Notes under the pieces: generated by a model
The model's database searches: none
What the model saw: the letters and a program-made list of their open reading frames with translations, nothing else
Told to the model about the DNA's origin: nothing
Assembly (NCBI GenBank): GCA_030745755.1
Contig: JASLOA010000007.1
Span: forward strand, 11,974 to 75,973
DNA from: Kiritimatiellia bacterium
GTDB lineage: Bacteria; Verrucomicrobiota; Kiritimatiellia; UBA8416; JABMPJ01
Length of the DNA: 64,000 bases
Reading direction: 5' to 3'
Program-made: the position numbers and the translations under genes
Part shown: positions 27,362-64,000 of the stretch, piece by piece
How positions within the stretch are numbered: position 1 is the first letter of the stretch
Layout of the letters: the number at the start of each line of letters is the position of its first letter

Positions 27362-28840
27362 TCACATATCCGCCGGGCTCTGAACCGAGAGCCCCGGCTT
27401 GTTCAGCACATGCGTGTAAATCATTGTCGTGGACACATCCGCATGCCCCAACAACTCCTGCACCGTACGGATATCGTAGTTTGCCATCAGCAGGTGCGTC
27501 GCAAACGAGTGGCGCAAGGCATGGCAGTTAACCTTCTTGGTAATGTCCGCCGCATCAGCCGCCTTCTTGATCGAGCGCTGCAAGTTACTCTCGTGGATGT
27601 GGTGCCGGCGTTCCACGCCACCTCGGGGATCGATCGAGAGCTTAACGGAAGGGAACACGTACTGCCAACGCCACTCCAGCCCGCCCTTGGGGTACTTCCG
27701 AGCCAGCGCATCCGGCAGAAACACCGGTCCCACACCAGCCTTCCGGTCCGCCGCAAACAGCTTACGCACACTCCCCATATGCTCCTTCAGAGGCGCAGCG
27801 TACTTCTTCGGGAGCATCGTCATCCGGTCCTTCTTGCCCTTTCCGGTCCGTACTATGAGCTGCTCGCTGTCGAAATCAACATCCTGCACGCGAAGACGGA
27901 TACACTCCATGAGGCGTAGCCCCGACCCATAGAGCAACCCCGCCATGACATAGGGTTCTCCGGCGAGATGGGCGAAGAGGCGGTCAATCTCCCCATGCGT
28001 CAACACCACCGGCAACAGCTTCGGCCGTTTCGATCGCTGAAAGTCATTCAAATCCCCAAGGGCCTTGCCGACAACAACCTTGTAGAACAGCACCAGTGCA
28101 CAGAGCGCCTGGTTCTGCGTGGACGCACCCACGTTACGTTTGTTCGCCAGGTAGGTGAGATACTCCACGATCTCCGGTTCCGCCAGGCTGCGAGGATCCC
28201 GGTACGCATGAAACGTCAAGAAACGCGTAACCCATGTCTCATAGCTGTGCTCCGTACGAATCGAATAGTTGCGACGCCGGATTTCCTCCCTCAACGTACC
28301 CAAATCCTGGCCAAACAGGTCACGGGCCTTCATGCCATCCAGCGTATCCCGAAACACCTGCTTCGCCGCATCGGCATGCAGAGCCACCGATGCATGGGCG
28401 TAGTGTTCGATCTCCGATGCAAAATGGAGGTGAGGCGACTTCCAGTCCTCCCATGGGAAGTCCTTTGCCCACGGGGTTTTGACCACCGTCACAAACAGAA
28501 TGCGCAACGCATCGACAAACTGGCTGAACTGCCAGTCCTCGAGCCGCCCGGCAGCCACCTGCTTGGACAGATAGCCCTTAATGTCCTCTGCCGTTTTATG
28601 CCCCAGTCGGACCCGCTTTGTACTTTCGATGAAATAAACCACCCGCTTCCGAGCCCACGCCACCGCCTGTGGGTTCATCCCATCCGCAGCCAGTTGACTC
28701 TCGTAGATCTCCGACGCTATCAATGCTTGGTGGCAGGAAACCGAGCCAACCGGAACGGTTGGCTCTCTTGTCGCCTCGCGTCTCGGTGAATCCTCACCGG
28801 AGAAACGATGGCTTGTTCGTGTCTTCCTGAAGAAACTCAA
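27362..28840 (-). CDS. intI: integron integrase (IntI) with long N-terminal extension
   Basis: Tyrosine recombinase boxes ALRHSFATHLL and GHADVSTTMIYTHV. The IntI-specific additional domain ALARKYPKGGLEWRWQYVFPS is present. Extended similarity to IntI1 from LREEIRRRNYSIRTEHSYETWV onward. TTG start at 28840; first in-frame ATG gives a start at 28678. Confidence 0.9.
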   Translation of the reverse strand: MSFFRKTRTSHRFSGEDSPRREATREPTVPVGSVSCHQALIASEIYESQLAADGMNPQAVAWARKRVVYFIESTKRVRLGHKTAEDIKGYLSKQVAAGRLEDWQFSQFVDALRILFVTVVKTPWAKDFPWEDWKSPHLHFASEIEHYAHASVALHADAAKQVFRDTLDGMKARDLFGQDLGTLREEIRRRNYSIRTEHSYETWVTRFLTFHAYRDPRSLAEPEIVEYLTYLANKRNVGASTQNQALCALVLFYKVVVGKALGDLNDFQRSKRPKLLPVVLTHGEIDRLFAHLAGEPYVMAGLLYGSGLRLMECIRLRVQDVDFDSEQLIVRTGKGKKDRMTMLPKKYAAPLKEHMGSVRKLFAADRKAGVGPVFLPDALARKYPKGGLEWRWQYVFPSVKLSIDPRGGVERRHHIHESNLQRSIKKAADAADITKKVNCHALRHSFATHLLMANYDIRTVQELLGHADVSTTMIYTHVLNKPGLSVQSPADM

Positions 28841-29003
28841 GACTTACGAAAAGACAGGGGTAAGTCTTGGCGTCATGACCAATCCCGAGAGTAGACAGAG
28901 GTGGGGAACCAAACCCATAGAGATCGGCTAACAACACCTTGCACACCTACAAAATGGGCCGCGCGGACGCGTCCCATGTTGAGGGTGAAGGCGGGCGTTG
29001 GCC
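28841..29003 (+). other. attI region (putative crossover G|TTGGCC at 28997/28998)
   Basis: Lies between the intI start and the first cassette. Contains GGCTAAC (28926) and GTTGGCC (28997) core-like sites and a GGACGCGTCC palindrome. Exact architecture is unresolved. Confidence 0.5.
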
Positions 29004-32091: not shown

Positions 32092-32145
32092 AGATGACAG
32101 AAGCGTGCCTTTGTGCCATAATACACCATCGAAAGGAGAGATGAT

Positions 32146-36419: not shown

Positions 36420-36501
36420 GGCCAACAAGCCCATGCAACGCGACTTCGGACCAGCTGCCTTTCAGGCACCTGGTCCGAAGCGGTTGATGATGACGTTATC
36501 C
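36420..36501 (+). other. attC site, family F (R'' GGCCAAC ... R' GTTATCC)
   Basis: Perfect 11-bp stem cttcggaccag/ctggtccgaag, and an inner tgcct/aggca stem. Confidence 0.65.
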
Positions 36502-36592
36502 CTGGAAAAAAGGATATAGCACATCCGACGGGTGTGTGCTATCGTATTCACATAGTAGACAAGCGCACACACCCAGCGATAGGAGTTGAACC

Positions 36593-36832
36593 GTGTCTCA
36601 AACCGTAACACTCAGACTTGACGATACCGTGTATCAAAGATTCAAGGGGTTGGCCCTTCATGACAACCGTCCCCTCTCAAATTTTATTCAGACGGCTGCA
36701 CTTCGCTTTGTCGAAGAACATGAGCTCGTTGATGAATTCGAGATGTCTGAAATCAAAGATAACGCATCCTTGAACCGCAGCCTCAAGAGCGGCTTGCGCG
36801 ATGCGAAGGCAAAGCGAGGACGCTTTGTCTGA
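36593..36832 (+). CDS. RHH (CopG-type) antitoxin
   Basis: GTG start with RBS AGGAGT. VTLRLDDTVYQRFKGLA ribbon. A palindrome lies upstream at about 36520-36550. Confidence 0.65.
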   Translation: MSQTVTLRLDDTVYQRFKGLALHDNRPLSNFIQTAALRFVEEHELVDEFEMSEIKDNASLNRSLKSGLRDAKAKRGRFV

Positions 36833-37106
36833 ATTCAGGATCTTTGAAACAGATGAATTCCTGAAACGCCTCAGGAAGTTGGCGTCGCGCGACGCCGCCT
36901 TCTTGAGGCGCAAGCTAGATTCATTTGTGTATCCCCAACTCAAGGCGGAGTCTTTCTGGGGAAACAACATCAAGAAGCTTCACGGCTACACCCCTGAAAC
37001 CTGGCGGTATCGCATTGGCAAATTCAGGATCTTCTACATTGTGGATCCAGAAGAGCAGATTCTCCATATCCTTACCGTTGATGATCGGAAGGATGCATAC
37101 CGATAG
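36801..37106 (+). CDS. RelE/ParE-family toxin
   Basis: ...WRYRIGKFRIFYIVDPEEQILHILTVDDRKDAYR. Confidence 0.65.
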   Translation: MRRQSEDALSEFRIFETDEFLKRLRKLASRDAAFLRRKLDSFVYPQLKAESFWGNNIKKLHGYTPETWRYRIGKFRIFYIVDPEEQILHILTVDDRKDAYR

Positions 37107-37116
37107 ATCGAGAGAG

Positions 37117-37197
37117 GGATAACAAGATGAATAGACACATACTTCTCAAAGCCGCGCTTCGCTTGCTTTGAGAACATGGTCATTCACGACGTTAGAT
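37117..37197 (+). other. attC site (R'' GGATAAC ... R' GTTAGAT)
   Basis: 9-bp stem tctcaaagc/gctttgaga. Confidence 0.6.
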
Positions 37198-37353
37198 CCC
37201 GAAATAGATAATGCTAAGCCACAGGGACTCCCCCGCGGGAAGATCACAGACTCAACCAGCTCAACCAGACAGCCGAGCCCCAACCAAGCATCGAAAGACA
37301 CACCCAGGAGACCCAGCCCAAAGCGCGACGCGCAATGCGGCGGGCAGGCATGG

Positions 37354-37415
37354 ATCTAACAAGAGGCTGCTCGCGTACCCTCGTATACTCGGGCCGGAGA
37401 GCCTGATCGTTGGGC
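37354..37415 (+). other. attC site (R'' ATCTAAC ... R' GTTGGGC)
   Basis: ggctGctc/gagagcc L boxes with an extrahelical G. Bounds an ORF-less ~210-bp cassette (37198-37408). Confidence 0.55.
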
Positions 37416-37439
37416 TTGAGAGAAAGGATTTGCAAATCT

Positions 37440-39092
37440 ATGCCTGGAGATATCATGCTGCTGTTGTTTGCACTGACTGTTATAGTGTGCCACTCGCAGG
37501 AAGCGGGAGCGGCAACGATTTCCGTGAAGAACTTTGGCGTAGCAGGCGATGGCACAAGTGACGACGGGCCAGCCATCCGTAAAGCGGTTGAGGCCGCGAC
37601 CAAAGGCGGCCCAGGAACAAAGCTTGTTTTCGAGAGCAAGGCCTACCGCCTTGGAGCAAACAAGGGCGGCAATGGCCAGATCAGGCTGGTCGATGTAGAC
37701 GGCCTGACCATCGACGGGAACGGCTCGACCCTACTCCTGCATCCTCAGAACGGGATGTTTGACGTCCTCAAGTGCCGGAACGTCGTCATCCGCGGATTTA
37801 CGATCGACTTCGATCCACTGCCGTTCACACAGGGCACAATCAGCAGCGTAGATGCAGGCAAAGGCTTCTTCGATCTGGAGTTCCACAAGGGATATCCCCT
37901 CCCTTTGCCGGATGAAGCAGTGAAGAAACGCTTGGGCAAAGGCGGCTGGCGCTGGGGATCGGTCATCGACCCGAAGGAACGCCATCGCCGCTGGGGAATT
38001 GCAGACCACTACTCTATCGACTCGATCAATTTGGTTGCGGGCAGAACCTATCGCATCACGGTTGCGCCCTCGGATGCCAAACAACTCACTCCTGTCCGTC
38101 CCGGTGATAGATTCTTCCTGCCATTACAGCTTACCGAGAAAGGTGAACGCGCCTTCGGCTCAAACATCACGGTCAAGGAGTCGACAGACTGCACGATTGA
38201 GGATATCACGATCTACAGCGCACGTTGCGGCATGAACTACGCTATCACCCGCAATGAAGGCCTCATCACGCTGCGTAACAACAAGATCACCTTCAAGCCG
38301 GGCAGCACCCGTATCTGTACGACCTGGAAGGACGGCATGCACGTCAAAGATAACCGCGTTGGGCCGCTAATCGAGGGGTGCTATTTCGAAGGCATGCTGG
38401 ACGATAGCATCAACATCAGCGCTAATACAGCCATGGCGACTAAGATCATCTCACCGACAGAGTTTCAACTAATGGGTCCAGCGTTCTCTGCGGGTGACGA
38501 TGTGATGGTCTTCGAACCGAAGACCGGTAAGATACGGATGACGATGGTCGTCAAAGCGACGGCGCAAGGTAGAGACCACCTCGTAACGTTGGCCGATCCA
38601 ATGGAGGGCGTGATTACAGGGCGCAAACAACGCGAGCACGTAAAGTCCACCCACTTCTACAATATGAGCTACGTCAACAACGGCTTTATCGTTCGCAATT
38701 GCACGTTCAAACCCCAACGCCGACATGCACTACTGGTCCGTTGCAGCAACGGGCTGTTTGAAGGAAATACGGTTGATGGCGTCGGCGGAGCTGCCGTGTG
38801 GATGGGCAATGAGATGGGCAGCTTCTACGAAGGACCGTTCCCCACGAACAATATAGTCCGCAATAACACCATCAACAACACACAATTGCCTGCTATCAAA
38901 ATCTACACCCGTGCAGGCGGCAAAGCGAAGCTCACACGCAACATCAAGGTTGAGGACAATACAATCACAGTGCTTCCTGAGAAGCTGGGCATCTCGGTTC
39001 TCAATGCTGCATCCGTCGAGTGTAGGGGCAACCGCATTCTTGATCAACAGGGGACGGATATTGGGGCAGCAGGCGTGATTCTTAATGATTGA
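37440..39092 (+). CDS. secreted right-handed beta-helix protein (pectate-lyase superfamily / GH28-like)
   Basis: Signal peptide MPGDIMLLLFALTVIVCHS. ISVKNFGVAGDGTSDDGPAIRKAVEAA is typical of GH28 / Pectate_lyase_3. Repetitive N-x-I/V beta-helix coils. Confidence 0.7.
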   Translation: MPGDIMLLLFALTVIVCHSQEAGAATISVKNFGVAGDGTSDDGPAIRKAVEAATKGGPGTKLVFESKAYRLGANKGGNGQIRLVDVDGLTIDGNGSTLLLHPQNGMFDVLKCRNVVIRGFTIDFDPLPFTQGTISSVDAGKGFFDLEFHKGYPLPLPDEAVKKRLGKGGWRWGSVIDPKERHRRWGIADHYSIDSINLVAGRTYRITVAPSDAKQLTPVRPGDRFFLPLQLTEKGERAFGSNITVKESTDCTIEDITIYSARCGMNYAITRNEGLITLRNNKITFKPGSTRICTTWKDGMHVKDNRVGPLIEGCYFEGMLDDSINISANTAMATKIISPTEFQLMGPAFSAGDDVMVFEPKTGKIRMTMVVKATAQGRDHLVTLADPMEGVITGRKQREHVKSTHFYNMSYVNNGFIVRNCTFKPQRRHALLVRCSNGLFEGNTVDGVGGAAVWMGNEMGSFYEGPFPTNNIVRNNTINNTQLPAIKIYTRAGGKAKLTRNIKVEDNTITVLPEKLGISVLNAASVECRGNRILDQQGTDIGAAGVILND

Positions 39093-39205: not shown

Positions 39206-39388
39206 ATGAAATCTAAAGATATAGGATTCTTTGCCATGGGAGTGGGGGCACTGGGGATTATCATTCCAATTCTAGTCCTCATTGGAGATAGTTCAAAAAT
39301 TATTCAAATCGGGATTATGATCTCAGGATCGATCATATTCGGATGTGGTTGCATTGCCGCAGTTATCGCACAGAACAAGGAACAATAA
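39206..39388 (+). CDS. small membrane protein (60 aa), hypothetical
   Basis: RBS GGAAAGGAG. Two TM helices. Confidence 0.45.
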   Translation: MKSKDIGFFAMGVGALGIIIPILVLIGDSSKIIQIGIMISGSIIFGCGCIAAVIAQNKEQ

Positions 39389-46018: not shown

Positions 46019-46076
46019 GCAGAACAAGGCCAATGGACGGTACGGCTACAGCCGCCCGTCATTGCCGACGTTATCT
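46019..46076 (+). other. attC site, family A (R'' GCAGAAC ... R' GTTATCT)
   Basis: aatgGacgg/ccgtcatt L boxes with an extrahelical G. ggtacggctacagccgcc core. Confidence 0.7.
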
Positions 46077-46696
46077 TCACCAGCGATAATGGCGGCATGT
46101 TGAATCAGGGCGGACAGGACGCGTGGAAAGCCGGTCACCATATGAACGGCGATCTCTTTGGTTTCAAGTTTGATGCCTGGGAAGGAGGCCACCGGATTCC
46201 GTTCATTGCTCGGTGGCCGGGGAATATCGAGCCTGGTACACGATCAGACCAACTGATCTGTATTGTTGATATGCTTGCATCGTTTGCCTCTTTGCTAGGA
46301 CAAGAGCTCCCGGAGAACGCGGGGCCTGACAGCATCGATGTGCTGGAGGCACTATTCAGCGAACCAAAGGAATCGCTCAGGGAGAATTTGATCTTGGCAC
46401 CACGTACCAGAACACACCTGGGAATCCGTAGTGGTGACTGGATGTACATTCCTGAGCAAGGTGGCGGCGGTTTCACGGCAGAGAACCTTGGCGACCACGC
46501 GTTTGGAGGCCCCGCGGCTACTGCTTTTACCGGTCGACCCAATAGCGATATTGAGGCTGGGAAGCTGAAGAACGCTGCTCCCCCCGCTCAGCTCTACAAC
46601 CTGAAGGATGACCCATATCAAACCACTAATCTTCATGACCAACTGCCGGAAACGGTCCAGGAACTCCAACATCTTTTGACAAAAGAGACAGCATGA
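46077..46696 (+). pseudogene. sulfatase C-terminal fragment (5'-truncated at the cassette boundary)
   Basis: Reading frame opens directly at the attC crossover with IFTSDNGG..., i.e. sulfatase residues from about 280 onward. No FGly-motif region. Confidence 0.7.
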
Positions 46697-53160: not shown

Positions 53161-53217
53161 GCAGAACAGGCCCGATGGAGCGTACGGCTAAAGCCGCCGC
53201 TCATCGGCACGTACTGC
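53161..53217 (+). other. attC site, family A with degenerate R' (R'' GCAGAAC ... R' GTACTGC)
   Basis: gatggagcgtacggctaaagccgccgctcatcggc. GTT is replaced by GTA. Confidence 0.55.
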
Positions 53218-61826: not shown

Positions 61827-64000
61827 ATGGTGGAGTGCCAGGAGTCACAACACAGTAGAGCAAAGGGCCCATCCGAAACAGTCGCAGATAATCAAGGCGG
61901 CAAGAAGCCGAACCAGACCTTACACGTACGCGACTGGCATCCGACGGCAGACTACCGACGCGAGTTCCATGTGGCACGCCCGGCACGTGATGCTTACCAG
62001 ATCAGCGACTCGCTCTTCTCGTTGCGAGGGCGCGTGCTGCTTCCCAACTTCAAGGCGGCCCGACTGCTTGCTCAGCGCATGAATGAGAAGCGCGACCTGC
62101 AGCAGCACCCCGACCAGGCTGTTCGTGCCGGCCAGCTCAATGCGCTGTCGCTGCTCCACGAGATGATGCACCTCATGATCGTGGCCTATCGCGAGGCCAA
62201 CAGCCCGGACCTGTTGGGTGAGGCGTTGGAGTGGACCGAGTCCGAGCTCCCTTCCGATGACGTGGAAGCCACACTGTTGCGCTTCGCGGATCAGTTTCCC
62301 GTGGTGGATGTCTACCGGGGCAACCACACTGCCGCCGACTACCTCGCCGGTAGCACCGGCGACGAACCCCACCGTCATGAAGCGCTGGAAGAGATGTTGC
62401 TCCTCTGGATGGGCAACATCAACCCGGCCGGCCGATCCTGTCTCGAGCTGTTTGATGACGATAAGCTCGAACACGACACGGACTACCCGGATATCATCGA
62501 CACATTGAGAACGTTCTTCGAGGGTCAGCCGGGCCTGGGCCCGGGCAAGGAAAGCCTGTTCGACCTGCTGGAAGCACCCATCAAGGCATCGCCGGACTCG
62601 CTCGCCGGTCAACTGGAGTACATTCGCGACCATTGGGGCGACTTCCTCGGGCAGCGTCTGGACCTGCTGTCGACCGGCCTGGACCTGATCCGCGAGGAAG
62701 AGAAGCCCGTCTTCCATGGCCCGGGTCCGAGCCATACCCCCGATTACGCAGGGCTGGACGAGGACCACGAGCGCTACAGCAACGACTTGGACTGGATGCC
62801 GAACGTCGTGATGCTCGCAAAGAACGCCTACGTCTGGCTCGACCAGCTATCGCGTCAATACGAGCAGGACCTGCAGCGACTGGACCAGATTCCGGATGCC
62901 GAGCTGGACCGCCTGGCCACATCAGGATTCAACGGTCTCTGGTTGATCGGCCTGTGGGAGCGCAGCCGTGCATCACGACGCATCAAGCAGAAGATGGGCA
63001 ACCCCGAAGCCGTGGCGTCGGCCTACTCGCTCTATGACTACGTCATCGCGGATGATCTTGGCGGCCATGCCGCCTACGAGAATCTACGCGACCGCGCCGC
63101 GCAACGCGGCATCCGGCTGGCGAGCGACATGGTCCCCAACCATATGGGAATCGACAGCCGCGCGGTTATCGAGCATCCGGACTGGTTCATCTCGCTGGAT
63201 CACAGCCCCTTCCCTTCCTACACCTTTAATGGTCCCGATCTTTGCGAGGATGACAGGGTCGGCATCTACCTCGAAGACCATTACTACGACCACTCCGATG
63301 CCGCGGTCGTCTTCAAGCGCGTCGATAACCAGACCGGCGACACTCGCTACATCTATCATGGCAACGACGGCACCAGCATGGCCTGGAACGATACCGCGCA
63401 GCTCAATTACCTCGTGGCCGAGGTACGCGAAGCCGTCATCCAGACGATTCTGCACGTGGCACGCCACTTCCCGATCATCCGCTTCGATGCCGCCATGACG
63501 CTGGCCAAGAAACACTACCAGCGCCTCTGGTTCCCGGAACCCGGCAGCGGCGGCGATATTGCCTCCCGCTCCGAGTTTGGCATGACGAAGGCGGAGTTTG
63601 ACCGGGTCTTCCCGGTCGAATTCTGGCGGGACGTGGTCGACCGCGTCCAGGCCGAGGTGCCGGATACGCTCCTGCTGGCCGAGGCGTTCTGGATGACCGA
63701 AGGCTACTTCGTGCGAACGCTCGGCATGCACCGGGTCTATAACAGTGCTTTCATGAACATGTTAAAGGCCGAAGACAACGCCCAGTACCGTTCGCTCATC
63801 AAGAAAACCCTCGAGTTCGACCCCGAGATTCTGAAGCGCTACGTGAACTTCATGAACAACCCGGACGAAGAGACGGCCGTAGCGCAGTTTGGTTCGGGTG
63901 ACAAGTACTTCGGGGTCTGCGTCTTGATGGCTACCATGCCCGGCCTACCCATGTTCGGCCACGGACAGATCGAAGGTTTCCAGGAGAAGTACGGCATGGA
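61827..64000 (+). CDS. GH13 alpha-amylase-family protein (partial; continues beyond window)
   Basis: ATG at 61827 with RBS GAAGGGGA. GH13 regions DMVPNHMG, IRFDAAMTL and LLAEAFW. ORF is open to 64000. Confidence 0.75.
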   Translation, partial: MVECQESQHSRAKGPSETVADNQGGKKPNQTLHVRDWHPTADYRREFHVARPARDAYQISDSLFSLRGRVLLPNFKAARLLAQRMNEKRDLQQHPDQAVRAGQLNALSLLHEMMHLMIVAYREANSPDLLGEALEWTESELPSDDVEATLLRFADQFPVVDVYRGNHTAADYLAGSTGDEPHRHEALEEMLLLWMGNINPAGRSCLELFDDDKLEHDTDYPDIIDTLRTFFEGQPGLGPGKESLFDLLEAPIKASPDSLAGQLEYIRDHWGDFLGQRLDLLSTGLDLIREEEKPVFHGPGPSHTPDYAGLDEDHERYSNDLDWMPNVVMLAKNAYVWLDQLSRQYEQDLQRLDQIPDAELDRLATSGFNGLWLIGLWERSRASRRIKQKMGNPEAVASAYSLYDYVIADDLGGHAAYENLRDRAAQRGIRLASDMVPNHMGIDSRAVIEHPDWFISLDHSPFPSYTFNGPDLCEDDRVGIYLEDHYYDHSDAAVVFKRVDNQTGDTRYIYHGNDGTSMAWNDTAQLNYLVAEVREAVIQTILHVARHFPIIRFDAAMTLAKKHYQRLWFPEPGSGGDIASRSEFGMTKAEFDRVFPVEFWRDVVDRVQAEVPDTLLLAEAFWMTEGYFVRTLGMHRVYNSAFMNMLKAEDNAQYRSLIKKTLEFDPEILKRYVNFMNNPDEETAVAQFGSGDKYFGVCVLMATMPGLPMFGHGQIEGFQEKYGM

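Follow-up and report, generated by a model that had tools for sequence, protein, structure and literature searches.

A stretch of about 210 bp at positions 37198–37415 of the window (the whole 64,000 nt of Kiritimatiellia bacterium DNA that was analyzed) was described in a first-pass annotation as an ORF-less cassette bounded by two attC sites. The locus raises two questions. One is whether it represents a genuine integron cassette without a gene. The other is what such a cassette contains, i.e., a promoter, an RNA, a small peptide, or a passenger sequence with no function of its own.

The integron and its cassette array

The features at and around the locus are as follows.

27362–28678, minus strand: integron integrase gene (IntI); TIGR02249, Pfam Phage_integrase and SAM_4; gene call in three assemblies
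36496–37191, plus strand: upstream cassette with an RHH antitoxin (36593–36832) and a ParE toxin (36825–37106); ends in the attC at 37117–37197
37117–37197, plus strand: 81-nt attC at the end of the ParE cassette; the final six bases, TTAGAT, are the start of the gene-less cassette
37192–37409, plus strand: gene-less cassette, the mobile unit, 218 bp; from the TT of the upstream GTT to the G of its own GTT
37198–37353, plus strand: non-attC insert, 156 bp; A+C-rich, T-poor and assigned as non-coding
37354–37415, plus strand: the cassette's own attC, 62 nt; R'' ATCTAAC, R' GTTGGGC, of which TTGGGC belongs to the next cassette
37354–37415, plus strand: stem of the cassette's own attC, AGGCT-G-CTC-G-CG / CG-GAG-AGCCT; the 5' arm has two extrahelical bases
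37440–39092, plus strand: secreted beta-helix glycoside hydrolase, GH110-like; Pfam Beta_helix and gene calls

The integrase gene encodes a protein of 438 aa that scores 431 bits against the NCBIfam model TIGR02249, 'integron integrase' (cut-off 265). It is located at the left edge of a central block of ~53% GC, and the backbone of the window (1–28.8 kb and beyond 62 kb) has a GC content of ~61%. The gene is divergent from the cassette array. The genes to its right are all on the plus strand; most belong to small toxin-antitoxin pairs, and sulfatase and glycoside hydrolase genes are interspersed among them. The array has at least 40 attC sites/cassettes, all on the plus strand, between ~28.9 and 61.8 kb, and R'/R'' complementarity is 7/7 at most of its junctions. 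A divergent IntI gene together with a gene array on one strand corresponds to the organization of sedentary chromosomal integrons.

The array is present, identical base for base, in the metagenome-assembled genome GCA_030749005.1 and in two JGI metagenome assemblies. In all six contigs that carry the neighboring gene the order of the array is the same, with no natural rearrangement seen. Exact look-ups of the flanking proteins returned the same array alone, and therefore yielded no natural variant that differs in the presence or absence of the cassette.

The upstream cassette was assigned from Pfam matches to RHH_5 (weak) and ParE_toxin and from gene calls. The gene downstream starts 30 nt after the cassette boundary and is 8.5 kb from intI. 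It had been annotated as a large GH28-like gene that follows immediately. Its position is as described, but the GH28 label is imprecise: the closest relatives of its product among solved structures in the PDB are GH110 alpha-1,3-galactosidases (E = 3e-16).

A simple box pattern for attC sites, TAAC...GTTRRRY, is non-discriminating, with 7 matches versus 4.4 expected, and was therefore replaced by hairpin screening and by leave-out HMM and covariance models. Candidate attC sites were gathered as hairpins of the form xxxxAAC...GTTxxxx. An nhmmer profile was built from 21 attC sites and a covariance model from 18 short attC sites, both without either of the two sites that bound the gene-less cassette. 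A first MAFFT alignment was dropped; its R'' boxes were misaligned, and the RNAalifold consensus was of no use. The consensus structure was written by hand and then verified by pair counts. The hairpin of the attC family covaries in the 18-site alignment: 72% of cells pair versus 32–37% in slid controls, and the covariation score is 0.31 versus 0.07–0.10. None of 500 shuffles reaches the observed values.

The covariance model has 59 positions and was run unfiltered. All of its matches with E < 0.05 are on the plus strand and within 28.9–61.8 kb, and the search adds attC sites beyond the training set, e.g., at 53161, 57101, 32977, 30814 and 29941. The nhmmer profile found nothing in the window below E = 1 off the array or on the minus strand. 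A candidate at 61697–61773 proved to be a chance match within a truncated sulfatase gene; the actual partial attC is at 61761–61808.

Boundaries of the cassette and properties of its attC

Integron recombination splits R' between its G and its TT, so that a cassette begins with the remainder of the R' of its own attC, and these bases should complement the R'' of that attC. A comparison of GTTAGATCC (positions 37191–37199) with GGATCTAAC (positions 37352–37360) shows complementarity at 9/9 positions, as expected if the cassette begins with the split R' of its own attC. The intact complementarity at this boundary also means that the cassette ends are undecayed, an observation that speaks against erosion.

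The three junctions around the cassette, GTTATCC/GGATAAC, GTTAGAT/ATCTAAC and GTTGGGC/GCCCAAC, are all complementary. Both flanking ones are 7/7, i.e., the R'' of the upstream cassette (GGATAAC) complements the preceding R', and the R'' of the attC of the GH110-like gene (GCCCAAC) complements GTTGGGC. The G/TT crossover points and the R'/R'' complementarity define the unit as positions 37192–37409, 218 bp. The existence of the cassette that was first annotated as ~210 bp at 37198–37415 is thus upheld, but its limits are shifted to this unit, with the 156 bp insert at 37198–37353. The placement of the two attC sites at 37117–37197 and 37354–37415 is borne out by the boxes and the R'/R'' complementarity, and that of the second site also by the leave-out models.

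The 218 bp cassette is the smallest of the at least 40 in the array. The next-smallest are ~306–320 bp by their attC coordinates, and each of these has a called gene or an ORF of 74–94 aa.

The upstream attC at 37117–37197 has the boxes R'' GGATAAC and R' GTTAGAT and forms a strong single-stranded DNA hairpin (-18.3/-18.6 kcal/mol, z -5.5/-6.0; in a second computation -21.1 kcal/mol, z -7.2). It is a longer variant of the family and scores 12.7 bits in the covariance model, with an E value of 0.74.

The attC at 37354–37415 displays a canonical architecture with R'', a short spacer, an interrupted stem, a loop, L', a spacer and R'. Among 33 attC hairpins measured, this site folds most weakly, at -11.5 kcal/mol and z -2.4 when its own R' is restored; most others are near -20 kcal/mol. 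On the bottom strand its two extrahelical bases would be C/C; those of a34932, the one family member inspected, are G/G. The attC at 37354–37415 is real but looks eroded. The decayed hairpin suggests that the cassette may now be hard to mobilize.

The first-pass annotation had allowed for the attC at 37354 being spurious. In that case positions 37354–37415 would be palindromic by chance, and the 156 bp, rather than belonging to a separate cassette, would form a 5' leader of the cassette that carries the GH110-like gene. The weakness of the hairpin agrees with this, as does its folding in the context of the array, which is not above that of shuffles (z 0.2). It is contradicted by full-length matches to models of sequence and of structure that were trained without this site: the leave-out nhmmer profile aligns positions 37355–37414 on the plus strand with an E value of 0.012, and the leave-out covariance model aligns positions 37354–37415 over model positions 1–59 with 19.3 bits and an E value of 0.02. 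The boxes at 37354–37360 and 37409–37415 match the consensus RYYYAAC/GTTRRRY perfectly. In addition, the site aligns with the attC family of the array and has its orientation and its placement of the extrahelical bases in the same arm, the R'' pairs 9/9 with the first bases of the cassette, and the R' pairs 7/7 with the R'' of the next attC. A chance palindrome is therefore extremely improbable, and positions 37192–37409 very probably represent a real, non-coding integron cassette.

Content of the insert

Three features were located in or at the edge of the insert.

37183–37212, plus strand: sigma-70-like match, TTCACG-18 nt-GATAAT, from a consensus scan; 9/12 positions and the sole such match in the cassette
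37244–37351, minus strand: 35-codon ORF (MPARRIARRALGWVSWVCLSMLGWGSAVWLSWLSL), start at 37351 and end at 37244; wholly inside the cassette and judged not to be a gene
37251–37268, plus strand: perfect tandem duplication of a 9-mer, CTCAACCAG in two copies, from a repeat search

The base composition of the insert is extreme. Among all 63,845 windows of that size its T content, 7.1%, ranks lowest. A+C reaches 78%, the second highest value in the window, and C/G reaches 2.46 over 78 nt, which is within the top 0.12% of plus-strand windows of the array and the top 0.46% across the window on both strands. Neutral decay does not explain such a composition; it could reflect a function or the origin of the DNA. 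Either a Rho-loading site or former coding DNA for a linker rich in Pro, Thr, Ser and Gln would be compatible with it. The insert was compared with a second T-poor region (~61800–61930), and no likeness was found between positions 37198–37353 and that region (p = 0.75).

There are no gene calls between ParE and the beta-helix gene in GCA_030749005.1 or the two JGI metagenome assemblies. The six frames of positions 37150–37440, joined as one query against 5.8 billion protein clusters, give nothing at E ≤ 1, and the two long attC-spanning ORFs have no Pfam match. Codon usage was assessed by a log-likelihood trained on 36 genes of the array. Relative to shuffles of the insert, the six insert frames have z values of -0.84 to 1.06; for in-frame gene pieces of the same size the median is 3.14 and the 10th percentile 2.35. 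A Shine-Dalgarno motif is absent before every start codon of the region. These results agree with the first reading that no plausible ORF lies between the attC sites. The statement that the only ORFs span the attC sites has to be corrected, as the 35-codon minus-strand ORF is wholly within the cassette. It is the longest ORF contained there (108 nt), and longer ones cross the attC into the next gene. The encoded product would be basic at its N-terminus and then hydrophobic. It was considered as a type I toxin, a reading rejected on the lack of a homologue, a codon-usage z of -0.43 and the lack of a Shine-Dalgarno motif. Frame 0 of the plus strand, read from the start of the cassette, meets its first stop codon at a TAA within R'', and it has no start codon inside the cassette. 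Such open frames are expected by chance and are uninformative, because with 7.1% T in the plus strand of the insert stop codons are rare on both strands. The cassette has no annotated gene, no contained ORF over 150–210 bp and no translated similarity, which are the properties of gene-less cassettes as defined in PMC11014356 and PMC1382264.

The sRNA and promoter functions suggested in the first-pass annotation find little backing in the sequence. There is no Rfam match in the window at gathering thresholds, and around the cassette at E ≤ 10 there is one irrelevant match of 14 nt, which is outside the cassette. The folding of the insert is not above that of shuffles (z 0.13 on the plus strand and -0.76 on the minus strand). 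A terminator scan shows one weak stem on the minus strand (37316–37304, 5 pairs) and none on the plus strand, which has too few T residues for an intrinsic terminator. Taken by the properties that mark a small RNA, the cassette shows no family match, no significant fold, no sigma-70-like match wholly inside it and no plus-strand terminator. An 11-bp helix between CAGGCAUGGAU and AUCUAUGCCUG (positions 37345–55 with 37436–46), which spans the ATG of the gene downstream, is present in the minimum free energy and centroid folds. It was rejected as a chance pairing because its duplex energy is no better than that of shuffled cassettes (p = 0.6) or of other array segments.

The sigma-70-like match at 37183–37212 straddles the upstream junction: the attC before it contributes the -35 element from its 3' arm, and the -10 element is 16–21 nt inside the cassette. 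The -10 element, GATAAT, is the sole T-containing patch of the insert and points downstream. Since the -35 element is within the attC of the neighbor, the match is a feature of the junction and not a portable promoter. The estimated chance of one such match in 218 bp of one strand is ~0.07, and no enrichment of sigma-70-like matches is seen across the array (15 versus 13.1 expected). No antisense match was found in the cassette. Toxin-antitoxin cassettes have sigma-70-like matches near their 5' ends at 32094, 33719, 34408 and 45566, and with several such 5' sites this type of promoter appears to be in use. Promoter and small-RNA prediction, which was proposed in the first-pass annotation, thus leaves one junction-spanning 9/12 sigma-70-like match, with no Rfam match and no significant fold.

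No similar DNA is present in the rest of the window. A blastn search of the PLSDB plasmids shows one chance match of 33 nt only. A 20-mer has five matches of 20–22 nt in 185,579 species-representative genomes, all in unrelated taxa and due to chance, and a codon-aware 30-nt pattern, verified on the window, has zero matches in metagenome contigs. Both of these collection scans required 20–24 specified bases to be exact, and neither collection contains the source population, so that the finding of no homologue is weaker than it appears. Conservation in related integrons, proposed at first as a check, is not seen: none of 80 loci that encode IntI relatives matches the cassette, and the closest IntI proteins among them (84–87% identical) are encoded on contigs of under 2 kb.

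Alternative explanations and significance

The reading that we prefer, and to which as a whole we give about an even chance, is that the locus represents a genuine non-coding cassette, a passenger, eroded or minimal, that has no function of its own and is co-transcribed as an untranslated spacer. It would have been inserted into a sedentary chromosomal integron, presumably by IntI-mediated recombination like its neighbors. It would have no promoter inside and no structured RNA or peptide of its own, and it would be transcribed by read-through alone, from the upstream RHH/ParE cassette into the GH110-like gene. Such read-through appears plausible because the upstream attC hairpin has no T-run after it. 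The interpretation as an eroded passenger is based on the orphan status of the cassette, the weakest attC of the array, the lack of an internal signal and the precedent for decay in the same array. This precedent consists of two truncated sulfatase cassettes, which imply that cassette erosion is occurring here. The cassette at 46071–46696 starts in the middle of a sulfatase gene and keeps positions 235–300 of the 301 in the Pfam sulfatase profile. The terminal unit at 61611–61808, a mini-cassette of ~210 bp, has profile positions 1–46 of 301 fused to a partial attC.

The main rival is that the cassette provides a promoter for the GH110-like gene, either through a sense promoter of its own or by contributing the -10 half to a promoter that arises at the junction with the upstream attC. 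We regard this as possible but rather doubtful. The TTCACG-18-GATAAT match is made at the sole T-containing patch of the insert and is directed downstream, toward a gene that is 8.5 kb from intI and has a leader of 30 nt. There is no separate promoter-like site before the start codon of this gene, and the other match, at 37429–37456, overlaps the start codon. The sigma-70-like matches of the toxin-antitoxin cassettes add to this. Set against these points, the -35 element would not move with the cassette, since it is in the attC of its neighbor, and a 9/12 match can be due to chance at the rate estimated above in an array where such matches are hardly more frequent than expected. The other 140 bp are nearly T-free and have no room for a TANNNT -10 element. 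The hosts of the tested promoter cassettes are AT-rich. Promoter activity has precedent among the gene-less cassettes of Vibrio, in most of those tested, and in some ORF-less ones of Treponema (PMC11014356, PMC6557892), but the tested promoter cassettes are larger, with 491–666 bp. A promoter may be present in spite of the poor consensus match, since software failed to predict the Vibrio cassette promoters (PMC11014356).

The composition of the insert bears on another explanation, that the cassette is an RNA module acting in cis or in trans, i.e., a rut-like insulator that loads Rho and so reduces the read-through arriving from the toxin-antitoxin promoter, or a C-rich regulatory RNA. The C/G value of 2.46 over 78 nt, the untranslated and unstructured plus-strand RNA, and the attC hairpin directly after the insert, which may be a pause site, are consistent with it, and an integron-encoded small RNA, sRNA-Xcc1, is on record as cited in PMC8876359. 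It is opposed by the empty Rfam search and the folds that are not significant, by the sole terminator-like stem being weak and on the minus strand, and by the 11-bp helix over the downstream ATG being no better than shuffles. In addition, Rho inhibition left the read-out of Vibrio gene-less cassettes unchanged (PMC11014356). An RNA module of either kind is unlikely, and more so the specific form in which the insert would be a portable untranslated module (a Rho-loading insulator or C-rich leader) that tunes toxin-antitoxin transcription into the next cassette. The remaining explanation is a small protein, either a hydrophobic type I toxin-like peptide from the minus-strand ORF or a disordered peptide rich in P, S, T and Q from the plus frame. 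An ORF that is fully inside the cassette, with a basic N-terminus and then a hydrophobic stretch, and a plus frame 0 that is open up to the TAA in R'' can be cited for it. Open frames by chance are, however, expected where the base needed by every stop codon makes up 7%, and the plus frame has no start codon within the cassette. There is no Shine-Dalgarno motif, the six-frame homologue search is empty and there is no gene call in the three assemblies. By codon usage the minus ORF has a z of -0.43 and the best frame one of 1.06, and 90% of real gene pieces reach at least 2.35. A small protein is very improbable.

Gene-less cassettes are known from Vibrio, where most of those tested have sense-strand promoter activity that software was unable to predict (PMC11014356, Blanco et al. 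2024). Those tested are 491–666 bp with inserts of 335–515 bp and attC sites of 101–127 nt (PMC11014356). Non-coding cassettes represent 6–49% of Vibrio arrays and have either close vibrio homologues or none; in Vibrio sp. DAT722, 8 of 25 have no nucleotide homologue (PMC1382264, Boucher et al. 2006). The cassette described here is similar to the Vibrio gene-less cassettes in that it is an attC-bounded unit of a sedentary chromosomal integron with no annotated gene or translated match, and similar to the eight from DAT722 in having no nucleotide homologue. It differs from the Vibrio ones in being under half their size, with an insert of 156 bp, in being extremely T-poor and A+C-rich, in being single copy rather than a member of a paralogous family, and in that no promoter-like site fits wholly inside it. 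ORF-less cassettes of Treponema from an oral metagenome carry sigma-70-like promoters, some of them antisense (Tansirichaiya et al. 2019, PMC6557892). The present cassette is likewise ORF-less and could influence the expression of neighboring cassettes, but has no antisense match and one junction-spanning sense match of 9/12.

According to PMC8876359, which cites Chen et al. 2011, sRNA-Xcc1 of Xanthomonas campestris is encoded by an integron. As far as that account goes, the likeness is that of non-coding content at the position of an integron cassette, and the difference is that the cassette here has no relevant Rfam match or significant fold and has one weak stem on the minus strand. The two truncated sulfatase cassettes of the same array (46071–46696 and 61611–61808) would share with it a loss of content, and the terminal one is also ~210 bp. 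These are recognizable as sulfatase and one has lost part of its attC, whereas the insert described here matches nothing and both ends of its cassette are intact.

The cassette is an orphan addition to the already known kind of gene-less cassettes, and as things stand it alters nothing fundamental. Gene-less cassettes are a recognized but poorly understood fraction of chromosomal integrons, and in Vibrio they are mostly internal promoters that wake silent cassettes. The array from which this example comes has a higher GC content and many cassettes for toxin-antitoxin systems and polysaccharide degradation. In size the cassette is far below those tested so far, and its base composition is the opposite of theirs. 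If the interpretation as an RNA module were true, it would represent a class of regulatory cassettes apart from the known promoter cassettes. If the cassette is inert, it would be a clean case of cassette erosion in which the recombination boundaries are kept; if it is functional, it would widen the range of forms that regulatory cassettes may take.

Region between the integrase gene and the first attC

Three features lie at the start of the array:

27362–28678 (-), intI, the integron integrase gene, divergent from the cassettes
28744–28766, palindrome GAGCCAACCG-gaa-CGGTTGGCTC, perfect at 10/10 positions
28926–29003, first attC

Only about 250 bp separate the start codon of intI from the first attC. 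The interval between the two contains the palindrome and has no ORF. The segment at 28679–29003 may represent attI together with a second gene-less cassette, in first position.

IntI is 438 aa in length, and its alignment with the integron-integrase model is restricted to residues 128–437. No Pfam domain falls within the additional ~125 residues at the N-terminus. This extension is matched in many metagenome relatives (47–84% identity; query residues 1–438 or 6–437); in other relatives the match begins only at residue ~126. There may be a subgroup of IntI with an N-terminal extension.

RNA helix and T-poor stretches

Secondary structure models of the RNA, both MFE and centroid, display an 11-bp helix with one G-U pair (positions 37345–37355 with 37436–37446). 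It joins the end of the gene-less cassette to the AUG of the downstream gene at 37440–39092 (+) and encloses the attC. The helix is no better than those of shuffled controls (p = 0.6). Directly past the array end, at 61733–61927, is a stretch that ranks second in the window for low T content; its sequence shows no resemblance to the T-poor insert of the gene-less cassette (37198–37353).

Truncated sulfatase cassettes

The final array unit (61539–61808) is a remnant of ~210 bp. Here an attC whose R' is degenerate (GTCAGGT) precedes a sulfatase gene of which just the first ~50 codons are kept (Pfam Sulfatase positions 1–46 of 301). Fused to this fragment is a partial attC that covers covariance-model positions 7–53, and the R'' box is absent from it. 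A second cassette (46071–46696) starts partway through a sulfatase gene, where the conserved FTSDNGG motif is encoded, and its start coincides exactly with a G|TT boundary. Of the Pfam profile, just positions 235–300 of 301 are left, which shows that the gene is 5'-truncated. The gene call in one assembly crosses an attC and takes in this remnant.

Toxin-antitoxin and polysaccharide degradation cassettes

Type II toxin-antitoxin cassettes are unusually dense in the array, with at least 15 pairs in its first 22 kb. Large enzyme cassettes of 1.5–2.4 kb alternate with them.

28900–61800, toxin-antitoxin types PemK, RelB/YafQ, ParE, HigB/RelE-HTH, PIN, HicAB, BrnT, Gp49-HTH and Phd/YoeB
39206–39388, hydrophobic ORF of 60 aa, gene call in all three assemblies

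The 60-aa ORF has no Pfam match and is immediately upstream of a sulfatase gene in the same cassette. The gene at 37440–39092 had been labeled GH28-like in the first-pass annotation, a label that is replaced here: the closest solved structures are GH110 alpha-1,3-galactosidases (E = 3e-16, residues 24–481). Its product has a signal peptide. A GH39 cassette and several sulfatase cassettes are located nearby, and together they give the array an apparent enrichment in functions for degrading sulfated polysaccharides.
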